Part shown: one piece after another, positions 1 to 15,035 of the stretch
How positions within the stretch are numbered: the first letter of the stretch is position 1
Layout of the letters: each line of letters starts with the position of its first letter
Origin: Lacunisphaera sp.
Lineage (GTDB): Bacteria > Verrucomicrobiota > Verrucomicrobiia > Opitutales > Opitutaceae
NCBI GenBank assembly: GCA_041917235.1
Contig: JAYRXZ010000006.1
Location: forward strand, 41,517-105,516
Direction of reading: 5' to 3'
Length of the DNA stretch: 64,000 nt
The notes under the pieces: generated by a model
The model's input: only the letters and a program-made list of their open reading frames with translations
What the model was told of the DNA's origin: nothing
Databases searched by the model: none
Made by a program: the position numbers and the translations under genes

Positions 1-1373
1 GTGCGGGCCACGGTGTCGAGCGGCTTGACGCGGCCGTTGACGAGCGTCGGCAGCTTGCCGAAGGCGTCGAGGTCGTAGTCCCCCTTCGGCGCGCGGGGAA
101 ACAGCGAAGAGGTGACGATCAGCCCCGCGAGCACCGGCACGAGGATCGCGGTGAGCCGGGCGGCGGTCCAGCGCGGGCCGGCGGGAGCGGCCGAGGCCGC
201 GGCGCCGGGCGCGGCGGCCGGGCGACGGCGCTTGCCGACGAAGCCGACGAGGTGCAGGCCGAACTGCCAGCCGAGGCCGAGCGTCATGATGCCGCACGCG
301 ATGTAGGGGATCAGCCAGCTCGGGTTGCGCACGACCTGGAGCACGGTGGTCGTGTCGTTGTTGTCGAAGCCGGCCTGATAGAACGTGAGCCCCGCGTAGC
401 GCAGCGGGTTGTTCATGTAGATGAGGACCTCGCGGTCGTCCTTGCCGTCGGGCGTGGTCAGGCGGAGGCGGCTGGAGAAGTTCTTCGGGATCTCGGTGCC
501 GGCGTAGCGGTCGTGGCTGAACTTCAGCAGCGTGAGCGAATACGGCTTGTAGTGCCGCGCATAGCGCAGCGCGATCTTCCACTTCCGGCCGCCGAACTCG
601 AAGGGCTGCGCGTCCAGCTGCGGCGCCACGAGCCACGTGCCGATCGGGCCGTCGGGGCCGGTCAGCTCGACGTAGGCGGCGGGCAGGTTGCGCTCGCCCT
701 CCTTGAAGGTCAGCGCCATCGGGCTGACGAGGATGCGCGGGCCGACGCCCTGGTTGGCCGGGCCGGTCGGGGCGTTGGCGCCGGGCATGGCCTCCGACAG
801 GCCGGCGTTGGGCAGGTAGGTGTGAACCCCGACGCGGAACGGCAGCTTGGGGTGCTGCACCGCCTGCTTGCGGGCGAGCGGCGCCTCGGGGATCGCGACC
901 ACCTCGTCGAACTTCGGGTCGGTCGTGTCGGTGATCGCCAGCTCGATGTTCCGGTAGCTCTCCGAGTAGTTCTTGGTCTCGCCCTGGTCGAGGCGCATCT
1001 GGAACTCGTCCTGCCAGAGCGCGGTGAGCAGCTGTCCGATGAGCAGGACGATCAGGCCGATGTGCGCCAGCCAGATGCCGAGCTTTTTCCAGCTGAACTG
1101 GAAGCGGTAGATGTGCGCGGCGATGAGGTTGACCAGCAGCAGCCCGCCCAGCGTGTAACCGCCGGGGAACACGGCGAGCGACATGTCGCCCACGTGCCAG
1201 AACACGATGAAGGTGTTGAAGTATTTCGCCTGCACCACCCAGATGCCGAGGTTCACCTGGTCCAGCGTGGCGACCAGGATGAGGATGATGGAGAACAGGA
1301 TCAGGACGACCGTGAGCTTGAGCGACACGAACAGGTCGCGCGCGTCGGAGAGGAGGGTGTTCAGGAATTTCAC
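1..1373 (-). CDS. Cytochrome c biogenesis protein, ResB/Ccs1 (CcsB) family, partial (C-terminus beyond window start). GTG start overlaps the stop of the upstream lipoprotein gene (GTGA).
   Basis: Own minus-strand translation (not in ORF track because no stop in window): VKFLNTLLSDARDLFVSLKLTVVLILFSIILILVATL... with N-terminal TM helices, a ~300 aa soluble domain, then ...YMNNPLRYAGLTFYQAGFD followed by a TM (WLIPYIACGIMTLGLGW). This resembles the ResB-family C-terminal signature. Strong GC3 bias. It then continues with a further TM and tail to the window edge. Confidence 0.55.
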   Translation of the reverse strand, partial: MKFLNTLLSDARDLFVSLKLTVVLILFSIILILVATLDQVNLGIWVVQAKYFNTFIVFWHVGDMSLAVFPGGYTLGGLLLVNLIAAHIYRFQFSWKKLGIWLAHIGLIVLLIGQLLTALWQDEFQMRLDQGETKNYSESYRNIELAITDTTDPKFDEVVAIPEAPLARKQAVQHPKLPFRVGVHTYLPNAGLSEAMPGANAPTGPANQGVGPRILVSPMALTFKEGERNLPAAYVELTGPDGPIGTWLVAPQLDAQPFEFGGRKWKIALRYARHYKPYSLTLLKFSHDRYAGTEIPKNFSSRLRLTTPDGKDDREVLIYMNNPLRYAGLTFYQAGFDNNDTTTVLQVVRNPSWLIPYIACGIMTLGLGWQFGLHLVGFVGKRRRPAAAPGAAASAAPAGPRWTAARLTAILVPVLAGLIVTSSLFPRAPKGDYDLDAFGKLPTLVNGRVKPLDTVAR

Positions 1374-2494
1374 GGCGCGGAGAGGGTTTGCACGAACGAG
1401 AGGAAGGCGGGCTTTTCCGCCGCGACCAGCGCGGCCGGACCGGTGAGCTTGAAGAACCACGTGGCGCCCGCGTGCGGGACCATCGCGCCGAGCAGGCGCT
1501 GCGGGTTGTCGCCGCCGCCCGTGATGTCCGCGAGCGTGACGGCCAGGCCGTTCACCGTGAGGCGCGTCACCGCGCCGGCGAACTCCGCCTCGGTGACGGG
1601 CGGCAGGCCGAGCTGGCCGCGCCAGCGGTTGAGATTGGCCAGGTCGCCGCCGACATCGCCGGGGAACGCCGTGACCGCGAGCTCGGCGGTGGCGCCGTTC
1701 GCGCCGGAAATGGTGAAGGTGGCCTTGCGCATCCCGACGCCGGTCTTCTCCAGCCAGCCGGCCGGGGCGGTCCACTTGAGACCGGGACCGCTGGCGCTGA
1801 CCACGGGCGAGCCGGTCATGTCCGCCGGCGGGGCGGCAGGTGCGGCGGTCACGGCTGCCGGGGTGGCGGCGGGCGCGGCCAGCGGCTGGGTGGAAACCTT
1901 GACGGTTTTCAGGAAGTCGAGGAACACGGCCTTTTCCGGCGCGACCACGGCGTCGGGGCCCGTGAGCTTGAAGAACCACGTGGCGCCCTGGTGCGGCACG
2001 ATGGCCCCGAGCATCCGCAGCGGGGCCTCGGCGGTGCCCCCGGCGAGGTCGACGACCTGCATGGCCACGCCCGCGCCGGACAGCGGCGTGAGGACGGCGG
2101 CAAGGTCCGCCGCGGCGATGGGCGGACGGCCGAGCTGGCCGAGCCAGCGGTTGACGTTGGCAAGGTCGCCGCCGACATCGCCCGGGAAGGCGGTGATCGC
2201 GAGGTCGGCGGCGGGGCCGCCCTCCGCGCCGATGGTGTAGCTGCCCTTGCGCATGGCGGATCCGGGCTTGGCCTTCCACGCGGCCGGGGCCGTCCAGGTG
2301 AGGCCGCCCGTCTCGGTGGAGGCAACCACCAGGCCGCCGGTGTCGGCGCCCATCGTCGCCGGGGTGGCGGCGGCCGCGGCCGGCGGCGGCGTGTCGTTTT
2401 CCTTGGGGATGCGGTAGGTGGCGACCTGGGCTTCGCGGCACGAGGCCAGGCCGAACGGAAGGACCATCAACAGGACCGGCCAGCGTGGGAGCAT
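1370..2494 (-). CDS. Lipoprotein of unknown function built from two tandem ~165-aa repeats (internal duplication)
   Basis: Track ORF 1370..2629(-); likely start at internal Met giving signal peptide MLPRWPVLLMVLPFGLASC (lipobox LASC). The two repeats share WTAPAxW...TAFPGDVGGDLANxNRWxGQLG...GAxVPHxGATWFFKLTGP. Co-oriented and overlapping with the ResB-like gene. Confidence 0.7.
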   Translation of the reverse strand: MLPRWPVLLMVLPFGLASCREAQVATYRIPKENDTPPPAAAAATPATMGADTGGLVVASTETGGLTWTAPAAWKAKPGSAMRKGSYTIGAEGGPAADLAITAFPGDVGGDLANVNRWLGQLGRPPIAAADLAAVLTPLSGAGVAMQVVDLAGGTAEAPLRMLGAIVPHQGATWFFKLTGPDAVVAPEKAVFLDFLKTVKVSTQPLAAPAATPAAVTAAPAAPPADMTGSPVVSASGPGLKWTAPAGWLEKTGVGMRKATFTISGANGATAELAVTAFPGDVGGDLANLNRWRGQLGLPPVTEAEFAGAVTRLTVNGLAVTLADITGGGDNPQRLLGAMVPHAGATWFFKLTGPAALVAAEKPAFLSFVQTLSAP

Positions 2495-2823
2495 GGCGCG
2501 GAGTGGAGAATAAAAGCGACCGCTTGGCAACCGTGACGGCCGGCGTGGAGGCAGACTGGATGGATTCATCGTGGAGCCGCGACTATGCCTGAAACCGGCC
2601 GGGGTGGCTGCGCATATCTTGCGAGCCATTAGCCGGGCCTTGCGGGAATTGCGTCCACCCCTCCGGCCGCCGGAGCAACAACCACAAACCCTGCGCGATA
2701 CTCGGCAACCAATGCGCAGCGACCGGAGCCGGTAACTGGCATTATAGGCGCGACAAGGTGCTGGGCCTCATTAATCTCCCGGCATCGCCTTCCTCATCCA
2801 TCATCACTCCATCCCCGCTCCTC

Positions 2824-3162
2824 ATGAAAAACCGCCATAAAGTCATCACCGCCGGCCTGGTCCTGCTCGCCGGCGCCACCCTGGGCCTCGCCGCCCCTGC
2901 CACCGAAAACTGGGAAAACCACTGCACCAAATGCCACGGCGAGGATGGCAAGGGCCAGACCAAGGTCGGCAAGAAACTCAAGCTGAAGGATTATACCGAC
3001 GCCAAGGCGCAGGCCGAGATGAAGGACGAGGACATGATCAAGGCCATCGCTGACGGCGTGAACGATGCCGCCGGCAAGGAGAAGATGAAGGCCTACAAGG
3101 ACGAGCTTTCGGCCGACGAGATCAAGGAACTCGTCGCCTACATCCGCAAGTTCAAGGCCTGA
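2824..3162 (+). CDS. Small soluble class I monoheme cytochrome c
   Basis: Track ORF 2758..3162; Met at 2824 gives signal peptide MKNRHKVITAGLVLLAGATLGLAAP; single CTKCH heme-binding motif; Lys-rich ~11 kDa mature protein. Confidence 0.8.
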   Translation: MKNRHKVITAGLVLLAGATLGLAAPATENWENHCTKCHGEDGKGQTKVGKKLKLKDYTDAKAQAEMKDEDMIKAIADGVNDAAGKEKMKAYKDELSADEIKELVAYIRKFKA

Positions 3163-3229
3163 GCCGTTCTCCCCCTGTTGCAGGGACGCCGCCTGACGGC
3201 GCCCCTGCCCTTCCCCTCATCCCACGCCC

Positions 3230-4714
3230 ATGTCCACGCCCACCCCGCCCCCCGTCGCGCCACGCTCCCACTTCAACAACTGGATCAGCGCCATCGGCGC
3301 CGTGCTCGCCGTGGGCGCGCTGTTCTCGTTCGCGCTGCTCTGCTGGATGGACCTGACCGGGGCGCACAAGAATCCCTACCTCGGCATCTTCACCTACCTC
3401 GTGGCCCCCGGCTTCCTCATCGCCGGCCTGGTCACGGTCTTTTTCGGCGCCTGGGCCCAGCGCCGCTGGGCGATCAAGCATGCGGCCACCATGCCCGACA
3501 AGTGGCGGCTGGACTTCACCAATCCCAAGCAGCGCAAGATGCTGGTCCTGTTCGGCATCGGGGGCGTCGGGTTCCTGCTCCTGAGCGCCTTCGGCAGCTA
3601 CCAGACCTACCATTACGCGGAGTCCACCCAGTTCTGCGGCCAGGTCTGCCACTCGGCCATGAACCCCGAGTTCGTCACCTACCAGCGCGGAGCACACGCC
3701 CGCGTGGACTGCGTGGAGTGCCATGTCGGGTCCGGCGCCACGGCTTTCATCAAGGCCAAGCTCAACGGCACGCGCCAGCTCATCGGCTATACGCTCAACA
3801 ACTACAACCGGCCGATCGACACGCCGGTGCACAACCTCCGCCCCGCCCGGGAGACCTGCGAGAAGTGCCACTGGCCGGAGAAGTTCCACGGCAACCTCGA
3901 CATCACCTTCGACCACTACCTTTCCGACAAGAAAAACACCCCCGCCAGCGTCCGCATGCTGCTGCATGTGAACTCCGGCCGGCAGGGCGGCCCGCTGGCC
4001 GGCATCCACTGGCACGTCAGCCCCGACAGCTCGGTCGAGTATTACGCCGCCGATGCTGACCGCCAGGACATCGTCTGGATGCGCGTCACGGACAAGAAGG
4101 CCGGCACGTCCCGGATCTACCGCAACGAGGAGTTCAAGGGCGAGCCGCCCGCAGGCACGGTCCGCACGATGGACTGCATCGATTGCCACAACCGCCCGGC
4201 CCACGCCTTCCCGACCGCCAACGACGCCGTCGAAAAGTCGCTCGGGCTCGGCACCCTCAGCACCAAGCTCCCCAACATCAAGCGCAGCGCCGTGCAGGCC
4301 ATGCTGCAGAAGGAGATCACCACCGACGCCGGCGCGCCGCAGCAGATCGCCGATTTCCTCACGGCCAAATACAAGGGCGACCCCGAGCTGCCCGCGGCCA
4401 TCGCCGAGGTGCAGCGCATCTACTCCACCTCCATCTTCCCCGAGCGCAAGGCCGACTGGCGCGTCTACCCGAACAACATCGGCCACAAGGACTGGCCCGG
4501 CTGCTTCCGCTGCCACGACGACAAGCACAAGACCGCCACCGGTGAAACCGTCCGCGCCAGCGACTGCACCTCGTGCCACTCGATCATCGCGCAGGGCAAG
4601 GGCGCCGAGCTCGCCACCATCTCGGCCAGCGGCCTGGAGTTCAAGCACCCCGGCGGCGAGCTCGATCCCGAGCTGAGCTGCGCGGACTGCCACAACGGCG
4701 GCATCCAGAAGTAA
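3230..4714 (+). CDS. Membrane-anchored multiheme cytochrome c, NapC/NirT/NrfH-like N-terminus with 7 CxxCH motifs (ImcH-like putative quinol dehydrogenase)
   Basis: N-terminal TM helices (ISAIGAVLAVGALFSFALL; VAPGFLIAGLVTVFFGAW), then CGQVCH, CVECH, CEKCH in NapC/NirT-like spacing, followed by CIDCH, CFRCH, CTSCH, CADCH. Confidence 0.85.
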   Translation: MSTPTPPPVAPRSHFNNWISAIGAVLAVGALFSFALLCWMDLTGAHKNPYLGIFTYLVAPGFLIAGLVTVFFGAWAQRRWAIKHAATMPDKWRLDFTNPKQRKMLVLFGIGGVGFLLLSAFGSYQTYHYAESTQFCGQVCHSAMNPEFVTYQRGAHARVDCVECHVGSGATAFIKAKLNGTRQLIGYTLNNYNRPIDTPVHNLRPARETCEKCHWPEKFHGNLDITFDHYLSDKKNTPASVRMLLHVNSGRQGGPLAGIHWHVSPDSSVEYYAADADRQDIVWMRVTDKKAGTSRIYRNEEFKGEPPAGTVRTMDCIDCHNRPAHAFPTANDAVEKSLGLGTLSTKLPNIKRSAVQAMLQKEITTDAGAPQQIADFLTAKYKGDPELPAAIAEVQRIYSTSIFPERKADWRVYPNNIGHKDWPGCFRCHDDKHKTATGETVRASDCTSCHSIIAQGKGAELATISASGLEFKHPGGELDPELSCADCHNGGIQK

Positions 4715-4804
4715 CGGCGCCCCGCCGGCAAATTACGCTCCGGTTCGGCCAAGCGCTGCGTAGCCGCGGCGCGGCATTCGGCGCATCCTGTGCGCGGAGC
4801 TACC

Positions 4805-6952
4805 ATGAACGCAATCTGCCGGCGGATCCCGCTACTCGTGTTCACCCTGCTGGCGCCCCTGGGCGCCCGCGCCGCCGACGCGGCCGTCACCCCCGCCCCG
4901 CTCAAGGCGCCGCCCGCGGTGCCCAACTCGGAGTGCATGGACTGCCACGAGGCCGAGTTCAAGGCCCCCAAGAAGGGCCTGCCGCCCGTCTGGATCGGTG
5001 TCCGGCCCGAGCTGTTCGCCAAGTCCGTGCACGGCGGACTGAACTGCGTGGACTGCCACGCCAGCATCAAGGACCCCACCCACGAGGACAAGCTGCCGCC
5101 CGCGCAGTGCGCCTCCTGCCACGAGGGCGCCGCCAAGCAGTTCGCCGCCAGCATCCACGGCGTGAAGCGCGACGGCGGGCTCCCCGTCGCCGCCACCTGC
5201 GCAAGCTGCCACGGCAAGACCCACGAGCTGCTGCCGGTGAAGCACGTGGATTCCCCCGTGGCGAAGTTCAGCCTCCTCGCCACCTGCGCGCAGTGCCACG
5301 AGGGCGACAAGACCAAGCTCGGCCTGAAGAACGGCGACGCCATTGCGCATTTCAAGGACAGCATCCACGGCCAGGGCCTCTACAAGATGGGGCTCAACGT
5401 CTCGCCCACCTGCAACGACTGCCACGGCGTGCACGACATCAAGTCCATCAAGGACGCCTCCGCCCACACCAGCCGCGCCGCCCTGTCCAAGACCTGCGGC
5501 GCCTGCCACGTCGGCGTCGAGAAGACCTACGCGGCCAGCATCCACGGCCAGCCCGCCAAGCCCGGCCAGAAGACCGCGGTCTGCACCGACTGCCACACCG
5601 CGCACGACATCGAGCGCCCCGGCAGCGCGCACTTCAAGCAGACCAGCGACCAGAAGTGCGGCGCCTGCCACGAGGACCGCCTCGCCAACTACCGCGAGAC
5701 CTACCACGGCAAGGCCATGCTGCTCGGCCAGGCCAGCGCCGCCACCGACGTCGCCGCGTGCTACGACTGCCACGGCCACCACGACATCCTCAAGCACACC
5801 GACCCGAAGTCGAAGCTCTCGGCCGGCAACATCGTCCAGACCTGCGCCTCGTGCCACAAGGGCGTCAACGCCGCCTTCACCCAATACCAGCCGCACGCGG
5901 ACCACACCGACGGGAAGAACTACCCGGTGCTCCACTGGACCTACCTCGCGATGACGACGCTGCTCGTCAGCGTGTTCGCCTTCTTCGGCGTGCACACGCT
6001 GCTCTGGATCACGCGCTTCACGCTCACTTATCTCCGCGACCCGGCCGGCTTCCGCGCCGCCCGCGCCGCGCTGCACGACGAGACGGAGACCTACCGCCGC
6101 TTCAACCCCTACGAGCGCTTCCTCCACATGCTCGTCGTCACGAGCTTCCTCGCGCTGGTGCTCACCGGCATGCCGCTGAAGTTCTATTACACCGAATGGG
6201 CGCGAGTCATGTTCAACGTCCTCGGCGGCCCCGAGGCCGCGCGCGTGCTGCACCACCTCGCCGCCCTCGTCACGTTCCTGTATTTCGGCCTGCACCTCGC
6301 CAGCCTCGCGCAGGGCCTGTGGCGGAACCGCGGCGCGGTGCGGGACCCCGCCACCGGGCGCTTCGCCCTCGGCCGGTTCTGGGGCGCCGTGTTCGGGCCC
6401 GACTCCATGGTCCCGTCCTTCCAGGACCTGCGCGACTTCCTCGCCCACGTGAAGTGGTTCCTCGGCCGGGGCCCGCGCCCCTCGTGGGACCGCTGGACCT
6501 ACTGGGAGCGCTTCGACTACCTCGCCGTCTTCTGGGGCGTCGGCATCATCGGCCTCTCCGGCCTCGTGCTGTGGTTCCCGAAGTTCTTCACCACCTTCCT
6601 GCCCGGCTGGCTGATCAACATCGCGGTGGTGATCCACTCCGACGAGGCCCTGCTCGCCGCGGGCTTCATCTTCACGTTCCATTTCTTCAACACGCACTTC
6701 CGGCTGGATAAGTTCCCGATGGATACCGTGATCTTCTCCGGCCACATCTCGAAGGCCGAGATGCTGACCGAGCGCCGCCGGTGGTATGACCGCCTCGTCG
6801 CCTCGGGGAAGCTCGAGCAGCACCGCGTGATCCACACCGACTGGGCCGCCCGGCGCACGCTCTACAAGACGCTCGGCTTCATCTTCGTCGGCATCGGGCT
6901 GCTGCTCCTCGCGCTGATGATCTACGCCCTGCTCTCGCGCCTCGGCCACTGA
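4805..6952 (+). CDS. Fusion protein: N-terminal periplasmic 11-heme c-type cytochrome + C-terminal dihaem cytochrome b membrane domain (FdnI/HydC/PhsC-like); CbcL-like
   Basis: Signal peptide MNAICRRIPLLVFTLLAPLGARA; 11 CxxCH motifs (CMDCH, CVDCH, CASCH x3, CAQCH, CNDCH, CGACH x2, CTDCH, CYDCH). C-terminal ~330 aa with 5-6 TM helices, motif RFNPYERFLHMLV and TM histidines (HHLAALVTFLYFGLH; VVIHSDEA; FTFHFFNTHF). Confidence 0.85.
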   Translation: MNAICRRIPLLVFTLLAPLGARAADAAVTPAPLKAPPAVPNSECMDCHEAEFKAPKKGLPPVWIGVRPELFAKSVHGGLNCVDCHASIKDPTHEDKLPPAQCASCHEGAAKQFAASIHGVKRDGGLPVAATCASCHGKTHELLPVKHVDSPVAKFSLLATCAQCHEGDKTKLGLKNGDAIAHFKDSIHGQGLYKMGLNVSPTCNDCHGVHDIKSIKDASAHTSRAALSKTCGACHVGVEKTYAASIHGQPAKPGQKTAVCTDCHTAHDIERPGSAHFKQTSDQKCGACHEDRLANYRETYHGKAMLLGQASAATDVAACYDCHGHHDILKHTDPKSKLSAGNIVQTCASCHKGVNAAFTQYQPHADHTDGKNYPVLHWTYLAMTTLLVSVFAFFGVHTLLWITRFTLTYLRDPAGFRAARAALHDETETYRRFNPYERFLHMLVVTSFLALVLTGMPLKFYYTEWARVMFNVLGGPEAARVLHHLAALVTFLYFGLHLASLAQGLWRNRGAVRDPATGRFALGRFWGAVFGPDSMVPSFQDLRDFLAHVKWFLGRGPRPSWDRWTYWERFDYLAVFWGVGIIGLSGLVLWFPKFFTTFLPGWLINIAVVIHSDEALLAAGFIFTFHFFNTHFRLDKFPMDTVIFSGHISKAEMLTERRRWYDRLVASGKLEQHRVIHTDWAARRTLYKTLGFIFVGIGLLLLALMIYALLSRLGH

Positions 6953-6962
6953 GGACCCTTCC

Positions 6963-8294
6963 ATGAACGCCACGCCGCTGCTCGACTCCATTCTGCTCGG
7001 GCTGTTCCGTTACCGCACGCGCGGTTTCATGCGGATGACCGACTGTGACGGCACGGTGCCGCCCCGGCCGCAATCAGGCGGGACCTACCTCTACGTGCAC
7101 ATCCCGTTCTGCGAGGCGCTGTGCCCGTTCTGCTCGTTCCACCGCGTGCTGCACTGCCGCCCGCAGGCGAAACGCTACTTCGCCGCGCTCCGCCGCGAGC
7201 TCGAGCTCTACCACGCGGCCGGCTTCGAATTCACCGGGGTCTACTTCGGCGGCGGCACCCCGACCGTCGAGCCGGAGGAGCTGCTTGAGACCATCGCGCT
7301 CGTGCGGACGCGGTTCGCCGTGAAGGAGATCTCGGTCGAGACCAACCCCCGCGACCTCCGCCCCGACCTGCTCGCCCGGCTGCGCGCCGGCGGCGTGACG
7401 CGCCTCTCGGTCGGCGTGCAGAGCTTCGACGACACGCTGCTGCGCGAGATGGGCCGCTTTGAGAAATACGGCGGCGGGGCCGAGACGGCGGAGCGCATCC
7501 GCGGCGTGGCGGGGCTCTTCCCCACCCTCAACGTCGACCTGATCTTCAACCAGCCGCACCAGACCCTCGCGTCGCTCGAGCGCGACCTGGAGATCTTCTC
7601 GACCCTCGGGGCCGGCCAGGTTTCCTGCTATCCGCTGATGACCTCGCCCTCCGGCCTGCGCCGCCTCGCCGGCGCAATGGGCGTGCCCGACCGGCGGCGG
7701 CTGCGCCGGTTTTACCAGACCATCGGGCGCCGGCTCGCGGCCGGCGGCTTCTCGCCGACCTCCGCGTGGTGCTTCACGCGGAACGGCCATGGCAGCGACG
7801 AATACATCGCCACCGCGGACAACTACGTCGGCGCCGGCAGCGGCGCGTTCAGCTACCTCGACGGGACGCTCTACTCGACGAGCTTCTCGCTCAACTCCTA
7901 CGAGGAGCGCATCGCGCGGGGCCTCACCGGCATCGTGACGCGGCACCAGCTCGGGGACACCGACCGCATGCGGTATGCGCTGCTCGTGCGGATGTTCGGC
8001 CTCGGCCTCGACCGCGCGTGGGCGGTCGAGCATCACGGCCGAAAATTCTTCCGCCGCCTCTGGGGCGAGCTGCTCACGCTTGAGCTCCTCGGCGCGGCCA
8101 CGCGCGACGCGCGCGGCTGGCGGCTGACGGAAAAGGGCCGCTACTGGCTCATGCTGATGATGGCGGAATTCTTCGAGTCGGTGAACGCCTACCGCGACGC
8201 GATGCGCGCGCACGTGGCGGCCGAGCAGGCCGCGACCGCGCTGGCCGACCCGCTGCACGCCGCCTCCGCAGATTCCGCTCAGGCCAGTGCCTGA
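6963..8294 (+). CDS. Radical SAM protein, HemN/HemW family (oxygen-independent coproporphyrinogen III oxidase-like / heme chaperone-like)
   Basis: CxxxCxxC cluster in YVHIPFCEALCPFCSF followed by the family hallmark YFGGGTP; ~440 aa. True start may be a downstream Met (MRMTD). Confidence 0.85.
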   Translation: MNATPLLDSILLGLFRYRTRGFMRMTDCDGTVPPRPQSGGTYLYVHIPFCEALCPFCSFHRVLHCRPQAKRYFAALRRELELYHAAGFEFTGVYFGGGTPTVEPEELLETIALVRTRFAVKEISVETNPRDLRPDLLARLRAGGVTRLSVGVQSFDDTLLREMGRFEKYGGGAETAERIRGVAGLFPTLNVDLIFNQPHQTLASLERDLEIFSTLGAGQVSCYPLMTSPSGLRRLAGAMGVPDRRRLRRFYQTIGRRLAAGGFSPTSAWCFTRNGHGSDEYIATADNYVGAGSGAFSYLDGTLYSTSFSLNSYEERIARGLTGIVTRHQLGDTDRMRYALLVRMFGLGLDRAWAVEHHGRKFFRRLWGELLTLELLGAATRDARGWRLTEKGRYWLMLMMAEFFESVNAYRDAMRAHVAAEQAATALADPLHAASADSAQASA

Positions 8295-8472
8295 CCTAAT
8301 GTTAGGTGTTAACCCTACCTCAGGCCTAAGCATCGCTAATACACACCAAATCGTGCATACAACTCCGCAAGTGATGCGCAGCCATTGCCACCCCGTTCCG
8401 ATAGAGTGACCACGCTGAACCAGAACCTTTCCCCCGAACCAAGCCCAACCCTTCACTCCTAACTTTACGCCC

Positions 8473-9252
8473 ATGAAACTCCCGCTCCGCTGGACAAAAA
8501 ACACGCTGATCTTCGGCGGCATCGCCGCCTGGGGCCTCCTGCTGGTCTCCTGCGTTTCCGTCAACCGCTCCGTCATGGCACCGCCCTCGGTGCCGGGGGC
8601 CAAATTCGTGGGCACCAAGGCCTGCGCCGAATGCCATGAGACCGTGACCACGGGATTCCATGACGCGACGCACGCCAAGCTCACCGCCGATGGCGGCAAC
8701 GGCCAGGACATCGGCTGCGAGGCCTGCCACGGCCCCGGCAGCATCCACGTGAAGTCCGGCGGCGGCGCCGGCAGCATCGTGAACCCGGGCAACTCGCCCG
8801 AGACCTGCTTCCAGTGCCACCTGGACAAGCGCGGCGAGTTCAGCCTGCCGAACACCCACCCGGTGCTCGCCGGCAAGATGAGCTGCAGCGACTGCCACAG
8901 CCCGCACACCGGCGACGCCATCAACGAGACCAACACCGGCATGTCGACGCTCAACTCGTCCTGCCTGAAGTGCCACACCTCACAGGGCGGCCCCTATGTC
9001 TTCGAGCACGAGGCTTCCCGCGAGGGTTGCATGTCCTGCCACAGCCCGCACGGCTCCGTGAACCAGAAGATGCTCAAGGCCCGCAATGCCAACCTCTGCC
9101 TGCAATGCCACTTCCAGGAGCAACCCTCCGCCGGTGTCATCATGATCGGCGGCCGCGACCACGCGAGCTTCCTGTCCCGCGGCACCTGCTGGTCCGGTGG
9201 CTGCCACGAGGCCGTCCACGGCTCACACGTCAGCTCCTCCCTCCGCTTCTAA
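8473..9252 (+). CDS. Periplasmic/lipoprotein multiheme cytochrome c (7 CxxCH + 1 CxxxxCH), MtrA/OmaB-like
   Basis: Signal/lipobox region IAAWGLLLVSC; motifs CAECH, CEACH, CFQCH, CSDCH, CLKCH, CMSCH, CLQCH plus CWSGGCH in 259 aa, i.e. extremely heme-dense. Confidence 0.85.
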   Translation: MKLPLRWTKNTLIFGGIAAWGLLLVSCVSVNRSVMAPPSVPGAKFVGTKACAECHETVTTGFHDATHAKLTADGGNGQDIGCEACHGPGSIHVKSGGGAGSIVNPGNSPETCFQCHLDKRGEFSLPNTHPVLAGKMSCSDCHSPHTGDAINETNTGMSTLNSSCLKCHTSQGGPYVFEHEASREGCMSCHSPHGSVNQKMLKARNANLCLQCHFQEQPSAGVIMIGGRDHASFLSRGTCWSGGCHEAVHGSHVSSSLRF

Positions 9253-9277
9253 CACCCAAACCATCACGGATACTCCG

Positions 9278-11404
9278 ATGAACTCCACCGCCATTCTCCA
9301 CCTGATTCGCCGGCCCATGCTGGTCCTCGCGGGGGCGAGCCTGCTGGGCCTGCCGGGCGCCTTGAGCGCCCAAACCGGCAAGGCCAAGGAACCGACCTAC
9401 GAGAACTACATCGACTTCTCCGCGGGCTACAACCTGCAGGAGGGCGACCGCCCCGGCTTCCAGAAGCAATTCCAGCTCAATAAAAAGGGATCCATCGGCA
9501 TCGAGGATCTCTACTACACCACCGAGCTGAAGAACGAGGCCGTCCTCAAGCTCCGTGGCCATGCCCTGGCCGGGAACCATGACTACCTCCTCGACCTGTC
9601 CATCACCAAGGACGAGGTCGGCTACCTGAAGGCCGGCTACAAGATGTTCCGCACCTGGTATGATGGCAGCGGCGGCGTCTGGCCCACCAACGGCCTGCGC
9701 ATCCAGCTCTACGACGAGGACCTGCATGTCGACCGCGGCAACCTCTGGCTGGAGGCCGGCTTCACCAAGCCCGACGCCGTCAACTTCATGTTCCGTTACG
9801 ACTACCTCACGAAGAAGGGCCAGAAGGATTCCACCAGCTGGATGGACACCGGTCTCGCCGTCAGCGCGTCGGCCACCCGCTACATCGTGCCGACCTACCT
9901 GACCTTCGACGAGAAGCGCCACATCCTCAACGGCACCGTCTCGAAGGTCGCGGGCAAGCATGACCTCGCCCTGGGCCTCCGTTACGACAAGGGCGAGTAT
10001 GAGAACGGCCGCTACAGCCGCCGCACCCCGGGGCAGTCGACCGACCGCTACGTCACCGCCAAGGAGGGCCAGGACTTCGATCTGTTCCAGATCCGCGGCA
10101 GCTATCTCAACCAGCTGACCGAGAAGCTCAAGCTGACCACCGCCGTCGCCCGCACCAAGATCGACACCATCCTCAGCGGCAGCCGCATCTTCGGCACCGG
10201 CTACGACGCGGACTACAGCAGCACCTTCCCGACCCGCCAGCAGCGCGACGAGGGCTATTTCAGCCTGCTCCCCGGCAACGAGCTCGGCAAATCGCAGATG
10301 ACGCAGACCGTCGCCACCCTCAGCGCGCTGTATCTCGGCTCCGAGACCCTCCGCATCACGCCCTCCTTCCGGTTCGAGAAGACCCAGTGGCACAACCTGA
10401 TCGGGTTCGAGGAAACGAACTTCGGTGCCGCCCCCACCTTCACGCCCATCAACGACGAGGTGGAGGCCCGGAGCGCGAAAAGCTGGAAGACCTACGCCGC
10501 CAGCGTCGAAGCCCGCTACACCGGTTACAAGAACGTCTCACTCAACTTCAAGGCCGACTGGTCCAACTCCGCGGGCGAGCTCCAGGAGGAGCGCATCCTT
10601 GAGCCGGGCACCCCGCTGCAGGCCATCTCGATCGACCGCGACACCGAGCTGGAGCGCAGCGTGCAGAAGTATGCCTACACCGCCAACTGGTATGCCCGCC
10701 CCGGCACCACCGTCGCGGTGCAATACTACTTCAAGGCCCGCCAGAACGACTACCGCGCCACCCGCGACAACACCGTCAGCACCGCCGACCGCTACCCGGC
10801 CTACGTCACCGGCCAGGACTTTGAGACCAATGACTTCAACATCCGCCTGTCGCACCGCCTGTCGCCCAACTTCCGGACGATCACGCGCTACGACTACCAG
10901 AAGACCACCGTCCGCTCGCAGGAGGTCGGCTTGGCGTTCGCCCAGAGCATGGAGTCCATCCAGCACATCCTCTCCGAGAGCGTGACCTGGAACCCGCTCG
11001 CCCGCTGGTATCTCCAGGGCAACGTCAACTACGTGAACGAGACCCTCAAGACTCCGGCCGTCGGCCTGACCGGCGCCGCGAGCAACCTCGTGAAGAACAG
11101 CGATTCGAACTACGTGAACTTCAGCCTGAGCAGCGGCTACGCCCTCGACGAACAGAGCGACCTACTGGTGGATTACATGCTCTACAAGGCGATGGGTAAT
11201 TACATCAACAACTCCGCCGTCACCGTGCCCTACGGCACCGACAGCAAGCTGCAGACCTTCTCGGTGGGCTGGAACCGCCGCATGAACGCCCGCACGACGG
11301 TCAACCTGAAGTATACCTACGCCAAGAACGAGGACGTCCCGTCGCTCGGCGCCGCTGACTACGAGGGCCACCTGCTCTACGGTAAGGTCCAGTATCGCTT
11401 CTGA
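9278..11404 (+). CDS. Outer-membrane beta-barrel protein (~708 aa), putative porin partner of the upstream multiheme cytochrome (MtrB/MtoB/OmbB-like)
   Basis: Track ORF 9197..11404; Met at 9278 gives signal peptide MNSTAILHLIRRPMLVLAGASLLGLPGALSAQ. Alternating hydrophobic/aromatic beta-strand pattern throughout; C-terminus ...LYGKVQYRF with terminal Phe typical of OMPs. Starts 26 bp after the cytochrome gene. Confidence 0.75.
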   Translation: MNSTAILHLIRRPMLVLAGASLLGLPGALSAQTGKAKEPTYENYIDFSAGYNLQEGDRPGFQKQFQLNKKGSIGIEDLYYTTELKNEAVLKLRGHALAGNHDYLLDLSITKDEVGYLKAGYKMFRTWYDGSGGVWPTNGLRIQLYDEDLHVDRGNLWLEAGFTKPDAVNFMFRYDYLTKKGQKDSTSWMDTGLAVSASATRYIVPTYLTFDEKRHILNGTVSKVAGKHDLALGLRYDKGEYENGRYSRRTPGQSTDRYVTAKEGQDFDLFQIRGSYLNQLTEKLKLTTAVARTKIDTILSGSRIFGTGYDADYSSTFPTRQQRDEGYFSLLPGNELGKSQMTQTVATLSALYLGSETLRITPSFRFEKTQWHNLIGFEETNFGAAPTFTPINDEVEARSAKSWKTYAASVEARYTGYKNVSLNFKADWSNSAGELQEERILEPGTPLQAISIDRDTELERSVQKYAYTANWYARPGTTVAVQYYFKARQNDYRATRDNTVSTADRYPAYVTGQDFETNDFNIRLSHRLSPNFRTITRYDYQKTTVRSQEVGLAFAQSMESIQHILSESVTWNPLARWYLQGNVNYVNETLKTPAVGLTGAASNLVKNSDSNYVNFSLSSGYALDEQSDLLVDYMLYKAMGNYINNSAVTVPYGTDSKLQTFSVGWNRRMNARTTVNLKYTYAKNEDVPSLGAADYEGHLLYGKVQYRF

Positions 11405-11423
11405 GGCCGACTCCCTCACCCCC

Positions 11424-11457
11424 GGCCGCGGCGTCCTCGGACCCGCGGCCTTTTTGT
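11424..11457 (+). terminator. Rho-independent terminator after the cytochrome/porin operon
   Basis: GGCCGCGG cgtcctcggac CCGCGGCC followed by TTTTTGTTT, 20 bp after the stop at 11404. Confidence 0.7.
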
Positions 11458-11704
11458 TTATTCCCTGTGGGTCTAACCCCCCGGAGCTTGCTCCGACTTG
11501 GATTGTGCAATCCCACGGCGAGGTCGCCGTGGCTCCAGATCCGGCGCCTGGAGCGCGGGCGACCCCGCCCGCGAAGGGTTCGTTCAAAGGCCCGGAGCTT
11601 GCTCCGGGGATATTTACGGCCCTGGCCCCGGGGCCCGCAATATCCGCGCAGTGCCTGACAACGGGCGCAGGGCCGACCGCGCCCCTCCCTGCTAGAATGA
11701 GGGC

Positions 11705-13117
11705 ATGAACCTGCTCGCGCCCTCCGCCCCGTCAGCTCCCGCCGCCGCATCGCACGTGTGGCCCGTGGCCGTCATCGGCGGCGGCCTCACCGGCCTCGCC
11801 ACCGCCTGGCAGCTGCGCCGGGCGGGCGTCCCGGTCGTGGTGTTCGAGGCCGGCGTGGCCCCCGGCGGCGTCATCGGCTCCGGCCGCGAGGGCGGCTGGC
11901 TGGTCGAGACCGGCCCCAACACCCTCTTCGAGAACACCCCGGATATCTCGGCCTTCCTCACGGAGCTCGGACTGCGCGATCGCCGGCTTGTGGCCAATCC
12001 CGCCGCGGCGAAGCGCTACGTCGTGCAACATGGCGCCCCCGTGGCCCTGCCCGACTCCGCGTTTAAGTTCATTACCACCCCGCTCCTGTCAGCCCGCGCC
12101 AAGCTCAACGTGCTCGGCGAACCCTTCCGTGGCCGCCCGCCGGCGGGCAAGGAGGAATCCGTCGCGGAGTTCGTCACGCGCCGCCTCGGCCCGGAGTTTC
12201 TCGACTACATCGTGAACCCGTTCGTCGCGGGCGTCTTCGCCGGCGACCCGGCCGCCCTGTCCGTGAAGCACGCCTTCCCCAAGCTCTTCGCGCTGGAACA
12301 CGAGCACGGCTCGCTCGTCCGCGGCTCGCTCGCGCGGCGCAACGCCACCGGCGCCCCGAAGGGCAGCATGATCTCCTTTCCTGACGGCCTGGCGGAGATC
12401 CCCCGCGCCCTCGCCCGGGCCCTCGGCTCCGACCTGCGACTCGGCCACGCCGTCACCCATGTCCGCCGCACCGGCTCGACCTGGCAGGTCGGCTTCATCA
12501 CCGGCGGCATCCGCCGGGAGGAGGAATTTGCCGCCGTGATCTGCGCGCTGCCGCCCGACCTGCTGGGCGGGCTCCGGTTTGAGGGCGCCCCCGCCGCCGG
12601 CGCGCTCGCCCAGCTGCGCCGGGTCACCTCGCCGGCCGTCGCCTCCGTGTTCCTCGGCTACCGCCGGGAGGACGTCGCGCACCCGCTCGACGGCTTCGGC
12701 ATCCTCACCCCCGCGGTCGAGCGGCGCCGCATCCTCGGCACGCTGTTTTCCAGCACCCTGTTCCCCGGCCGCGCGCCGGAGGGACATGTCGCCCTGACCA
12801 CCTTCGTCGGCGGCACGCGGCAGCCGGAACTCGCCGGCGCCAGCGACCGCGAGCTGCTCGACACCGTCCGCTCCGAACTTGGCGCGCTGCTCGGCGTGCA
12901 CGGCGAACCCGTGTTCACCCGGATCCAGCGCTGGCCGCACGCCATCCCGCAATACACCGTCGGCTTCCAACAGTTCAAGGATGCCTGCGCCGCCGCCGAG
13001 GCCGGCGCGCCCGGCCTTTTCATCGGCGGCACCAGCCGCGACGGTGTCTCGCTCTCGCAATGCATCGCCGCCGGCAAGCGGCTGGCTGCGGCCGTCCAAC
13101 AGGCCGTCACGGCCTGA
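11705..13117 (+). CDS. hemY: Protoporphyrinogen oxidase (HemY/PPOX family, FAD-dependent)
   Basis: N-terminal dinucleotide-binding motif VAVIGGGLTGLATAWQL; length and conservation pattern of PPOX (VQHGAPVALP; FxGGxSRDGVSL near C-terminus). Confidence 0.8.
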   Translation: MNLLAPSAPSAPAAASHVWPVAVIGGGLTGLATAWQLRRAGVPVVVFEAGVAPGGVIGSGREGGWLVETGPNTLFENTPDISAFLTELGLRDRRLVANPAAAKRYVVQHGAPVALPDSAFKFITTPLLSARAKLNVLGEPFRGRPPAGKEESVAEFVTRRLGPEFLDYIVNPFVAGVFAGDPAALSVKHAFPKLFALEHEHGSLVRGSLARRNATGAPKGSMISFPDGLAEIPRALARALGSDLRLGHAVTHVRRTGSTWQVGFITGGIRREEEFAAVICALPPDLLGGLRFEGAPAAGALAQLRRVTSPAVASVFLGYRREDVAHPLDGFGILTPAVERRRILGTLFSSTLFPGRAPEGHVALTTFVGGTRQPELAGASDRELLDTVRSELGALLGVHGEPVFTRIQRWPHAIPQYTVGFQQFKDACAAAEAGAPGLFIGGTSRDGVSLSQCIAAGKRLAAAVQQAVTA

Positions 13118-13450
13118 GGCAACTGCATCGAAGGTGGAACCCGGCCTCTGGACGGGTTGGTCAGATGTGCGCCAAGAAATCAGATCCAGCCTGTCCGCCA
13201 TAGTCTCGGCAAAGGCGGAAGGCCTGTTTCGCCCAGCGAGTGCTTTCAAACCCCTCAGCTTCCGAAACCTGTCATTCTGAGCGTAGCGAAGTCTAGCCAG
13301 CAGGCTGGTTCGACATCCAGTTGAATGCTCGCTGCTCAAGCAAAGCGGCCCACATCCCGATGCATTCTTCACTGCGTTCAGAATGACAAATCGAGATTCT
13401 AAAACACTTCCTGGTTTAACTCCGCATCCCGGCTCCGTCGCCAAGGGCCC

Positions 13451-14551
13451 TCACCCCGCCAGGCTGACGGCCGGATAAAACTCGACCGGACGGTCGGCGG
13501 CCGTCGCTTGGGCATCCCCGGCCTGCAGCGCCCGCTCGGCCTGCGCCCAGAGGGTGGTCGTGCGCTCGGCGAGGATCTCGCGGCAGCGGATGATCTCCGA
13601 CTCCCGCGCCGCGCGGTTTTCCGCGGCGATCTTCGCGAGGTCGTCGAGATTGTAGACAAAGACGTTCTTGAGCGCAGTGACGCCGGCATCGACGTCGCGC
13701 GGCAGGGCGGCATCGATGAAAAACATCGGCCGGCCCGAGCGCTGCTGCATCGCGGCGGCAGCCCGCTCCGGCGAGATGATGGCCGCGGGACAGGAGGTGG
13801 AGCAGACCACGACGTCGAATTCGCCCAGTCGGGTGAGCGCCTCGTCAAAGGAGACCGCCGTGGCCCCCAGTTCCATTGCCGCCTCGCTGGCACGCTCCAG
13901 GCGCCGGCTGGCGACCACCAACGAACCCGGGCTGCGGCTGCGGAAGGCGCGGCCGCTCTTCAGGCCGATGTCGCCGGCACCCAACAACAGCACCTTCGTT
14001 TCGTCGAGCTTGCCGAAGATCCGCAGCGCGACCTCCACGGCCACGTTCGAGACGCTGACCAGGCCCGCCGTGATGCCCGTGTGCGTGCGGACGTGCTTGG
14101 CCGCCTGGAAGGCTTTCTGGAAAATGCGGTTCAGGACCGGACCCGCCGAGCCCCGGCCCTGTGCGGTGAGGAAGGCTTTCTTCACCTGGCCGAAAATCTC
14201 GTTCTCGCCGATCATCTGGGAATCGAGGCCGCTCGCCACCTCCAGCAGATGCTCGACCGTCGCGCGGCCGGCCAAGCCCAGCTTGATCCGATCAAATTCC
14301 TCCGGCGCGAAGCCCTGCCGCGCGCAGAACGCCGCGGCCACTTGGGCGGCCTGGCGATCGTTCTCGCCGACCCCGTAGATTTCCACGCGGTTGCAGGTGT
14401 TCAGGATGACAAACTCGACCAGGCCCGGGAGCCCCTTCAGGTCCGCGGCCAGACCGGCCTCGTTCACGGCGGAGAGGGCCAGCTTTTCGCGCAGCCCGAG
14501 CGGGGCGGTGCGGTGGGTGGCGCCAACAAGAAACAGTTGTCCGTCGTTCAT
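13451..14551 (-). CDS. hemA: Glutamyl-tRNA reductase
   Basis: Track ORF 13451..14878(-); the conserved HemA N-terminus begins at internal Met MNDGQLFLVGATHRTAPLGLREKLAL; contains ILNTCNRVEIYG (catalytic Cys region) and NADPH-binding LLLGAGDIG. Confidence 0.85.
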   Translation of the reverse strand: MNDGQLFLVGATHRTAPLGLREKLALSAVNEAGLAADLKGLPGLVEFVILNTCNRVEIYGVGENDRQAAQVAAAFCARQGFAPEEFDRIKLGLAGRATVEHLLEVASGLDSQMIGENEIFGQVKKAFLTAQGRGSAGPVLNRIFQKAFQAAKHVRTHTGITAGLVSVSNVAVEVALRIFGKLDETKVLLLGAGDIGLKSGRAFRSRSPGSLVVASRRLERASEAAMELGATAVSFDEALTRLGEFDVVVCSTSCPAAIISPERAAAAMQQRSGRPMFFIDAALPRDVDAGVTALKNVFVYNLDDLAKIAAENRAARESEIIRCREILAERTTTLWAQAERALQAGDAQATAADRPVEFYPAVSLAG

Positions 14552-14798
14552 CGTGCGGTGGTAGGGTGAAATCTGAACCCGGCCAGTATCGCAGGGATGC
14601 CCGGAACCGTCTGCGCGACGGTTGCCATCCACTCCGCAGTTCTTGCGCCCTGTGCCTGGGGGACCGCCCCGGGACCCGCCTGATCCCCTAATGCCCCTTA
14701 TGAGAAGGCCTTGAACGTCCGCCGGCCCGCCGGGGGCCCCGGCGGGCCGGCCAAGTTTCTGTTCGACAAGCCCCCGCCCGGCGCCTTCTGTTCCGGCC

Positions 14799-15035
14799 AT
14801 GGCCTCGCCTGAGAAAAAGCCCTTTTCCGTCGTCACCCTCGTCATTGACCTGACGCTCACCGCCATCGCCTTTGGCATCTTTTACTGGCTCGTGAACTCG
14901 CACGTGCCCTCCAACGACCCGAAGATGGTCATGCTGTGGGGTGGCCTCGCCGCCGGCTGCATGGCCGGCGTGTTCTGGCTCGCCTGGCAGATGCTCAAGG
15001 TCGTCTTCCAGTTCCAGCGCGATTCGCGCAAGTGA
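14799..15035 (+). CDS. Small hypothetical membrane protein (78 aa, 2 predicted TM)
   Basis: Strong GC3 bias; two hydrophobic helices; no competing credible ORF (overlapping 14882..16366(-) ORF is antisense to a real gene). Confidence 0.5.
   Translation: MASPEKKPFSVVTLVIDLTLTAIAFGIFYWLVNSHVPSNDPKMVMLWGGLAAGCMAGVFWLAWQMLKVVFQFQRDSRK

Follow-up and report, generated by a model that had tools for sequence, protein, structure and literature searches.

An ImcH-family hepta-haem cytochrome gene of Lacunisphaera lies beside a CbcL-like gene and a porin-cytochrome pair

We analysed a 64-kb stretch of DNA (64,000 nucleotides, hereafter the window) from Lacunisphaera sp., a member of the Opitutaceae (Verrucomicrobiota; assembly GCA_041917235.1, contig JAYRXZ010000006.1, positions 41,517 to 105,516). 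Near its left end lies a gene, at positions 3230-4714, which an initial annotation had read as encoding an ImcH-like, seven-haem inner-membrane cytochrome of the NapC/NirT family. Its haem motifs, three transmembrane (TM) helices, a match to the NapC/NirT domain and 39% identity to Geobacter ImcH all bear this reading out. The open reading frame (ORF) opens with ATG and has a third-position GC of 0.94, which typifies real genes in this 68% GC window and marks it as one of them. Public contigs also carry an independently called, identical protein of 494 amino acids (aa). The gene and the features of its product are as follows.

3230-4714, plus strand: ImcH-family gene for an inner-membrane hepta-haem cytochrome c, 494 aa, stop codon included in the coordinates
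3281-3358, plus strand: TM helix 1, residues 18-43 (hydropathy peak 2.36; AlphaFold2 helix)
3374-3478, plus strand: TM helix 2, residues 49-83, hydrophobic core about 49-75 (hydropathy peak 2.10; AlphaFold2 helix)
3524-3619, plus strand: TM helix 3, residues 99-130, ending just before the conserved Glu131 (hydropathy; AlphaFold2 helix)
3635-3652, plus strand: haem site 1, CGQVCH (CX3CH), residues 136-141, presumed quinol-site haem; aligns with C132-H137 of Geobacter ImcH
3710-3724, plus strand: haem site 2, CVECH, residues 161-165
3857-3871, plus strand: haem site 3, CEKCH, residues 210-214
4175-4189, plus strand: haem site 4, CIDCH, residues 316-320
4502-4516, plus strand: haem site 5, CFRCH, residues 425-429
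4565-4579, plus strand: haem site 6, CTSCH, residues 446-450
4679-4693, plus strand: haem site 7, CADCH, residues 484-488, presumed exit haem

The motif search found seven haem sites in all, one CX3CH and six CX2CH, and sites 2 to 7 are invariant in both family alignments described below. The first three motifs had been annotated as CxxCH. This holds for CVECH and CEKCH but not for CGQVCH, which is CX3CH, a first motif published as a hallmark of ImcH (PMC4251993, PMC6295460). The four further sites, which the annotation had assigned to a periplasmic extension, do all fall within the last ~280 residues. Hydropathy analysis gave three hydrophobic segments, and the stretch between helices 2 and 3 (residues 77-102) holds eight Lys/Arg. 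By the positive-inside rule this loop should be cytoplasmic, with the N-terminus inside and everything beyond residue ~130 in the periplasm. A periplasmic position of the haem part is also required for c-type haem attachment. The predicted topology thus agrees with the periplasmic haems that had been expected. In alignment, helix 3 is the counterpart of the single TM helix of NrfH, and the AlphaFold2 model places a beta-rich insertion of ~100 residues at 223-298. These data support a predicted N-in/C-out anchor with an NrfH-like module (helix 3 plus haems 1 to 3 or 4) and seven periplasmic haem sites.

An exhaustive homology search against 50%-identity clusters returned 3295 clusters at E<=1e-3 and 655 at E<=1e-30, with full-length relatives of the window protein at 35-52% identity. 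Among the best 150 representatives, nearly all have a CX3CH first motif of the form CG..CH, followed by five or six CX2CH motifs at matching spacing. Since their order and spacing are common to a large family, the motifs do not form a chance pattern. When 25 diverse members were aligned, all seven haem motifs were invariant, as were H156, H260, H262, H325, H419, H473, Lys177, Met144 and Pro146. The six invariant histidines outside the motifs equal the number needed for bis-His ligation of haems 2-7 and may well serve as these ligands. The nearest homologs are 72-85% identical and belong to Opitutaceae, Lacunisphaera and Opitutus terrae.

Published ImcH proteins have three TM helices, a CX3CH first motif and six CX2CH motifs; those of the Geobacter clade are 495-519 aa long and share 31.5-49% identity with homologs of other bacteria (PMC4251993, PMC6295460). 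In Geobacter sulfurreducens ImcH, the haem-1 pocket comprises His137 as proximal and Gln179 as distal ligand, together with Glu127, Lys173 and Tyr188 (bioRxiv 10.1101/2023.05.03.539133). As a Geobacter comparator we used a metagenome contig (L084) located via the published GSU3259 primer 3259KHis1. It encodes a 507-aa protein, four GSU3259 primers find sites in its flanks with 0-2 mismatches, and E127, C132, C136, H137, K173, Q179 and Y188 all stand at their published numbering. Given the agreement of primers and numbering, the encoded protein is, to judge by its sequence, a Geobacter ImcH very close to the reference GSU3259. Another representative with matching numbering (P0125) was rejected as a proxy for the Geobacter clade, its relatives being Bacteroidota, Ignavibacteria, Melioribacteraceae and Calditrichia; it was kept solely to deepen the alignment.

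The alignment to Geobacter ImcH, which had been proposed as a check, spans 488 aa at 39% identity (E 1e-117), with all seven haem motifs in register. Glu131, His141, Lys177, Gln183 and Tyr192 of the window protein align with Geobacter Glu127, His137, Lys173, Gln179 and Tyr188, respectively. In a 62-sequence alignment E131, H141, K177 and Q183 are invariant and Y192 is at least 90% conserved. The window protein shows every feature of ImcH that can be read from a sequence and is an ordinary member of the family. ImcH homologs outside Geobacter, including in Verrucomicrobia, have been reported before (PMC4251993, PMC6295460, bioRxiv 10.1101/2023.05.03.539133). Geobacter imcH is needed for extracellular acceptors above about -0.1 V, as found from the mutant phenotype (PMC4251993, PMC5322298). 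Such a high-redox-potential role is not readable from sequence, and for the window protein it would rest on the Geobacter mutants.

We also compared the protein with the quinol-oxidising anchors NrfH, NapC, TorC and CymA. Pfam PF03264 (NapC/NirT N-terminal) matches residues 101-193 (E 2.4e-13), and the sole solved relative is NrfH of Desulfovibrio vulgaris (2j7a_C), with a sequence E-value of 2.7e-5; in the phmmer alignment, covering query residues 102-215, haem motifs 1-3 align. Foldseek gave the ImcH model a probability of 1.0 for NrfH, with TM-scores of 0.51-0.53 over ~110 columns, and the remaining matches were noise. Homologs carry automatic annotations such as 'nitrate/TMAO reductase-like tetraheme cytochrome c subunit'. 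The domain match, the nearest solved structure and these annotations would all suit an anchor of the NrfH, NapC or TorC type that feeds a dedicated periplasmic nitrite, nitrate, TMAO or DMSO reductase. Against this, the protein scored only 55.6 bits with the NCBIfam NrfH model TIGR03153 (cut-off 134.2) and 24.5-24.8 bits with the TorC models (cut-offs 455-478), far under these equivalog thresholds; Geobacter ImcH is equally sub-threshold for NrfH (50.7 bits). With three TM helices, seven haems and 494 aa it also lies outside the range of NrfH, NapC, TorC and CymA (one TM helix, four or five haems, ~150-390 aa). No gene for a partner reductase of the NrfA, NapA/B, TorA, DmsA or DorA type was found in the 64-kb window, in line with the initial annotation, which had seen no NrfA or NapAB partner. 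None was seen beside homologs in 80 related loci, for which the window's own proteins were the only queries; those loci offer CbcL-like, cytochrome c and porin-cytochrome neighbours instead. The protein is not, on this comparison, an NrfH, NapC or TorC. A dedicated reductase anchor is contradicted by the sequence evidence, and we regard it as highly improbable.

The window contains four ORFs with CXXCH motifs, all in one co-oriented run. The neighbours of imcH in this run are listed below.

2824-3162, plus strand: monohaem class I cytochrome c, 112-aa precursor with signal peptide (Pfam PF00034, PF13442)
4805-6952, plus strand: CbcL/MtoC/MtrH-like bc-cytochrome with signal peptide, 715/720 aa (alternative GTG start at 4790)
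6963-8294, plus strand: radical-SAM HemN-like 'coproporphyrinogen III oxidase family' protein (NCBIfam NF006385, 412.8 bits, cut-off 355)
8473-9252, plus strand: MtrA/DmsE-like periplasmic multihaem cytochrome, 259 aa, with seven CX2CH and one CX4CH, giving eight sites
9275-11404, plus strand: MtrB-fold outer-membrane beta-barrel porin, 709 aa, ending in QYRF (AlphaFold2 and Foldseek)

The monohaem cytochrome gene, likewise called as 112 aa on public contigs, ends 67 bp upstream of imcH, and its product is a candidate periplasmic partner of ImcH. Among families, this product matches cbb3-oxidase-associated and c6-type cytochromes best. An assignment as MtoD ortholog was not adopted, the match being marginal (4xxl, E 0.008, compared with 1e-9 for Kuenenia c-552). 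On the other side of imcH, the next gene encodes the CbcL-like protein, as the initial annotation had stated. It has 11 CXXCH motifs between residues 49 and 356, followed by a C-terminal cytochrome-b-like membrane domain with about six hydrophobic or TM segments. Scores for this domain are 28.6 bits with PF01292, just under the cut-off of 30.1, and 32.9 bits with the FdnI model TIGR01583 (cut-off 115.85). Judged on architecture, 'CbcL-like' is a fair label.

The MtrA-like cytochrome scored 155.6 bits with TIGR03508 (cut-off 192.2) and 169.1 with NF041028 (cut-off 325), both under threshold; it is related to the decahaem family but shorter. Its eighth site is an unusual CX4CH (CWSGGCH). Its N-terminus (GLLLVSC) is lipobox-like, and for this reason the cytochrome may be lipid-anchored instead of soluble. 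The adjoining porin matched no Pfam family, MtrB_PioB included. Its AlphaFold2 model (pLDDT 84.3, pTM 0.78) is almost all beta and forms a large barrel, for which the best Foldseek match in the PDB is MtrB (6r2q_B, E 3e-13, TM-score 0.62/0.67); TonB-dependent barrels follow well behind at ~0.4. The porin family is small (169 database hits), centred on Opitutaceae and mostly annotated as hypothetical. The HemN-like gene sits between the CbcL-like and MtrA-like genes, and its product may serve haem synthesis, haem modification or the chaperoning of haem. A promoter and terminator scan of positions 2400-13400 gave nothing that exceeded shuffled expectation.

Taken together, the window protein is probably an ImcH-family (mena)quinol:periplasmic-cytochrome oxidoreductase that feeds the porin conduit in the outward direction. 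Within this combined statement, family membership is best supported, and outward transfer as the physiological role is less certain. By analogy with Geobacter ImcH, whose published biochemistry underlies this scheme (bioRxiv 10.1101/2023.05.03.539133), quinol (menaquinol) would be oxidised at haem 1 on the periplasmic face of the membrane. Protons would be released to the periplasm, making the step electroneutral, and electrons would run along the seven-haem wire, with spacing <12 Å, to the exposed terminal exit haem. Gene context suggests that the co-encoded monohaem cytochrome c, the eight-haem MtrA-like cytochrome or both would accept them. The eight-haem cytochrome, inserted in the MtrB-fold porin, would carry the electrons across the outer membrane, where Fe(III) or humic quinones, for example, would take them up outside the cell. 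The adjoining CbcL-like bc-cytochrome could provide a second entry point from the quinone pool, that is, a second quinol exit.

Several points weigh against this scheme. The AlphaFold2 model of ImcH is of moderate confidence (pLDDT 69.3) and weakest at the haem sites, where pLDDT falls below 50, and it is no guide to haem-ligand geometry. The Geobacter sequence used for comparison comes from a metagenome and stands in for the GSU3259 reference as a near relative. Sequence does not reveal in which direction the electrons flow. Monohaem class I cytochromes are usually high-potential. Geobacter ImcH did not interact with the monohaem cytochrome PccH (bioRxiv 10.1101/2023.05.03.539133). No MtrC/OmcA-type extracellular cytochrome was found among the window's four CXXCH-bearing ORFs, and the conduit therefore resembles the two-component MtoAB/PioAB type. 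Conduits of that type are known from Fe(II) oxidisers.

The lack of an MtrC-like protein in the window also favours electron flow in the reverse direction. Extracellular donors such as Fe(II) or reduced humics would then deliver electrons through the porin and eight-haem cytochrome to the monohaem cytochrome c, and from there to ImcH and/or the CbcL-like protein acting as quinone reductases, a role that Fe(II) oxidisers with mto clusters give to CymA(ES-1) and MtoC. The gene content does parallel mtoA-mtoB-mtoD-cymA and mtoA-mtoB-mtoC-mtoD, and homologs of CbcL/MtoC/MtrH are known in reducers and oxidisers alike (PMC6295460). The same study, however, leaves ImcH itself implicated only in quinol oxidation so far. 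The weak match of the monohaem cytochrome to MtoD (4xxl, E 0.008) would fit reverse flow, but its best structural relatives are Kuenenia c-552 and not MtoD. The rest of the window is that of a saccharolytic heterotroph, with GH31, GH2, PcRGLX and PFOR-like genes. In addition, the porin-cytochrome type described by He et al. 2017 (PMC5615132) comes from anoxic, humic-rich waters, and outward transfer was proposed for it. Reverse flow is thus unlikely, and outward transfer is the reading that we retain.

The gene context was next compared across related loci. A pattern scan, taking one genome per species, yielded the best 80 of at least 597 genomic hits, and these loci were searched by tblastn with the window proteins. 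They are the loci most similar to the query, and the frequencies below are not unbiased for the whole family. They span Verrucomicrobiota, Acidobacteriota, Bacteroidota, Ignavibacteria, Calditrichota, Omnitrophota and others; Geobacter is not among the best 80. A full-length CbcL-like gene on the same strand lies within 600 bp of imcH in 35 of the 80 loci, from several phyla, and in 30 of the 59 that have at least 2.5 kb on both sides. The adjacent CbcL-like genes encode 9-21 CXXCH motifs and 4-7 hydrophobic segments. Their place relative to imcH differs: Verrucomicrobiota have a downstream gene of the window's type (54-84% identity), whilst Acidobacteriota and others have an upstream gene of a paralogous type, ~29-40% identical. 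Two CbcL-like paralogs stand abreast in many loci (for example L003, L004, L007, L009, L013, L018 and L027), one of the window's type at 55-62% identity and a second at ~28-30%; this second type is the one that directly precedes imcH in Acidobacteriota. The initial annotation had called the pairing of the two quinol oxidoreductase genes notable. It does depart from the unlinked Geobacter genes, but with 35 instances in 80 loci it is not rare.

Of 74 loci that could be evaluated, 27 have a monohaem cytochrome c gene as the immediate upstream neighbour of imcH, and essentially all of these are of Verrucomicrobiota type. Together with the affinity of the window's monohaem cytochrome for cbb3-oxidase-associated and c6-type families, this would suit a system without an extracellular conduit, in which ImcH and the monohaem cytochrome act as a bc1- or ACIII-like quinol:cytochrome c oxidoreductase that serves a terminal oxidase or a periplasmic peroxidase. 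A further hint in this direction is that the retrieved flanks of 16 of 43 Verrucomicrobiota-type loci showed no porin-cytochrome pair and no CbcL-like gene. No oxidase or peroxidase gene occurs in the window, however, and the pair formed by imcH and the monohaem gene is contiguous with MtrA-/MtrB-like genes in the window, in O. terrae and in related loci. Of the 43 Verrucomicrobiota-type loci, 13 have the MtrA-like and barrel genes beside imcH; there the multihaem cytochrome usually comes first, followed by porin, cytochrome c and ImcH. O. terrae is, moreover, described as an anaerobe (PMC5615132). A route that bypasses the cell surface therefore seems quite improbable, and we continue with ImcH as the likely source of electrons for the porin conduit.

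The porin-cytochrome pair and a CbcL-like gene occur together in one of the 43 Verrucomicrobiota-type loci; the window has both. Locus L002 repeats the window's gene order as far as its contig reaches, with the HemN-like gene in the same position. In O. terrae PB90-1 (CP001032.1, 3307865-3329355) the minus strand carries ccsA, resB and a 388-aa gene, and the plus strand carries, in order, genes for cytochrome c, ImcH, a multihaem cytochrome (259 aa) and a porin (676 aa). The porin gene is followed directly by a gene for a type II NADH dehydrogenase (NDH-2) on the other strand; this enzyme could feed electrons into the quinone pool, its gene being next to the putative output pathway. Three contigs (L012, L014 and L022) with verrucomicrobial-type ImcH clusters (47-50% identity) are labelled as metagenome-assembled genomes of Bifidobacterium or Bifidobacteriaceae; these labels are probably binning or labelling errors.

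A published survey stated that mtrAB or mtoAB genes are not adjacent to imcH (PMC6295460). The clusters of the window and O. terrae qualify that statement; the verrucomicrobial porin-cytochrome pair is too divergent for detection as an MtrAB homolog by sequence. In the searchable literature we found no earlier report that imcH adjoins cbcL or that ImcH belongs to the verrucomicrobial cluster. What this analysis adds is the physical linkage of imcH to the verrucomicrobial porin-cytochrome conduit and the recurrence of the ImcH/CbcL-like pair across phyla. A wider proposal is that ImcH is the missing inner-membrane entry of the verrucomicrobial conduit of porin and eight-haem cytochrome, and that ImcH and the CbcL-like protein form a conserved two-gene module in Verrucomicrobiota, Acidobacteriota, Bacteroidota and others. 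We advance it tentatively and regard it, in this full form, as rather doubtful. If it is true, the conserved adjacency would imply that the two quinone-pool cytochromes are coupled, functionally or physically, for instance through a shared periplasmic partner, potential-dependent co-regulation or a redox loop. This would contrast with the picture in Geobacter, where the two are independent, unlinked alternatives.

Verrucomicrobiota are abundant polysaccharide degraders of soil and freshwater and, to our knowledge, are not known as metal or humic reducers. The window and cultured O. terrae PB90-1 offer a complete, testable candidate route from quinol to the cell surface in this phylum. Genetic markers for the respiration of extracellular acceptors are few, and ImcH is one of them. 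Levar et al. 2014 (PMC4251993) noted that knowing the proteins that interact with ImcH would improve sequence-based prediction.

The flanks of the cluster hold the following genes.

3-1376, minus strand: ResB-like System II cytochrome c biogenesis protein (Pfam PF05140, E 7e-17), running past the left end of the window
1370-2494, minus strand: conserved predicted lipoprotein, 374 aa, with LASC lipobox and signal peptide, transcribed divergently from the cluster
11705-13117, plus strand: protoporphyrinogen oxidase of haem synthesis (TIGR00562, 286.8 bits, cut-off 97.85)
13451-14881, minus strand: glutamyl-tRNA reductase HemA of haem synthesis (Pfam GlutR_N, Shikimate_DH)

The 374-aa lipoprotein found no match in Pfam or NCBIfam. 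An internal duplication gives two halves identical at 89 of 161 residues, and there is no haem motif. In at least 13 loci of Verrucomicrobiota, homologs adjoin ImcH or porin-cytochrome genes; the protein may belong to the electron-transfer system as a component not yet characterised. The 388-aa gene of O. terrae matches it in position, and the ResB/CcsA genes there likewise match the window's ResB-like gene. About 15 kb thus unites haem synthesis, haem attachment and 27 c-haem sites. The remainder of the window holds genes for sugar metabolism, efflux and housekeeping. Very long antisense ORFs over real genes, at 252-2240 on the plus strand and elsewhere (662 aa, for example), are spurious products of the 68% GC content.

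Among known systems, the window protein is closest to ImcH of G. sulfurreducens (GSU3259). Both have three N-terminal TM helices, the same order and spacing of motifs, an NrfH-like N-terminal module and similar size (494 and 507 aa). They come from different phyla, the window protein belonging to the Opitutaceae. Geobacter imcH is monocistronic and unlinked to cbcL, whereas the window gene stands in a co-oriented run of electron-transfer genes; no PpcA-type trihaem partner is encoded nearby. The CbcL-like protein resembles CbcL, MtoC and MtrH in architecture; these have a periplasmic multihaem domain fused to a HydC/FdnI-like cytochrome b domain, for which the scores of the window protein are sub-threshold. 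Its size and haem count fall within the published range (416-1034 aa and 3-23 CX2CH motifs; PMC6295460). Geobacter CbcL carries nine haems, and its gene is not linked to imcH; the window protein has 11 motifs and its gene adjoins imcH.

With NrfH (2J7A/2VR0), and with NapC, NirT and CymA, the window protein has in common the module of a TM helix and the first haems, including a lysine equivalent to that of the NrfH quinol site. NrfH itself measures ~150 aa, with a single TM helix, four haems, a CXXCH motif at haem 1 and NrfA as its dedicated partner; the window protein adds two TM helices, the beta-rich insertion and three or four further haems, has CX3CH at haem 1, and has no partner reductase gene in the window. 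The mtoAB-mtoD-cymA/mtoC clusters of Fe(II)-oxidising Betaproteobacteria place the same four functional classes side by side, namely a multihaem cytochrome, a porin, a monohaem class I cytochrome c and an inner-membrane quinone-pool cytochrome. The mto clusters use CymA where the window has ImcH and a CbcL-like protein, their multihaem cytochrome has 10 haem sites and not eight, and their hosts are Fe(II) oxidisers, in contrast to the saccharolytic heterotroph studied here.

The closest parallel to the conduit is the verrucomicrobial cluster of He et al. 2017 (PMC5615132), which comprises a porin and a cytochrome with eight haem sites and includes O. terrae. That study leaves the inner-membrane step open ('ET in IM') and mentions none of ImcH, CbcL or NapC. 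The window has exactly such a pair at 8473-11404. In O. terrae imcH is contiguous with the pair, and in the window it stands in the same cluster.

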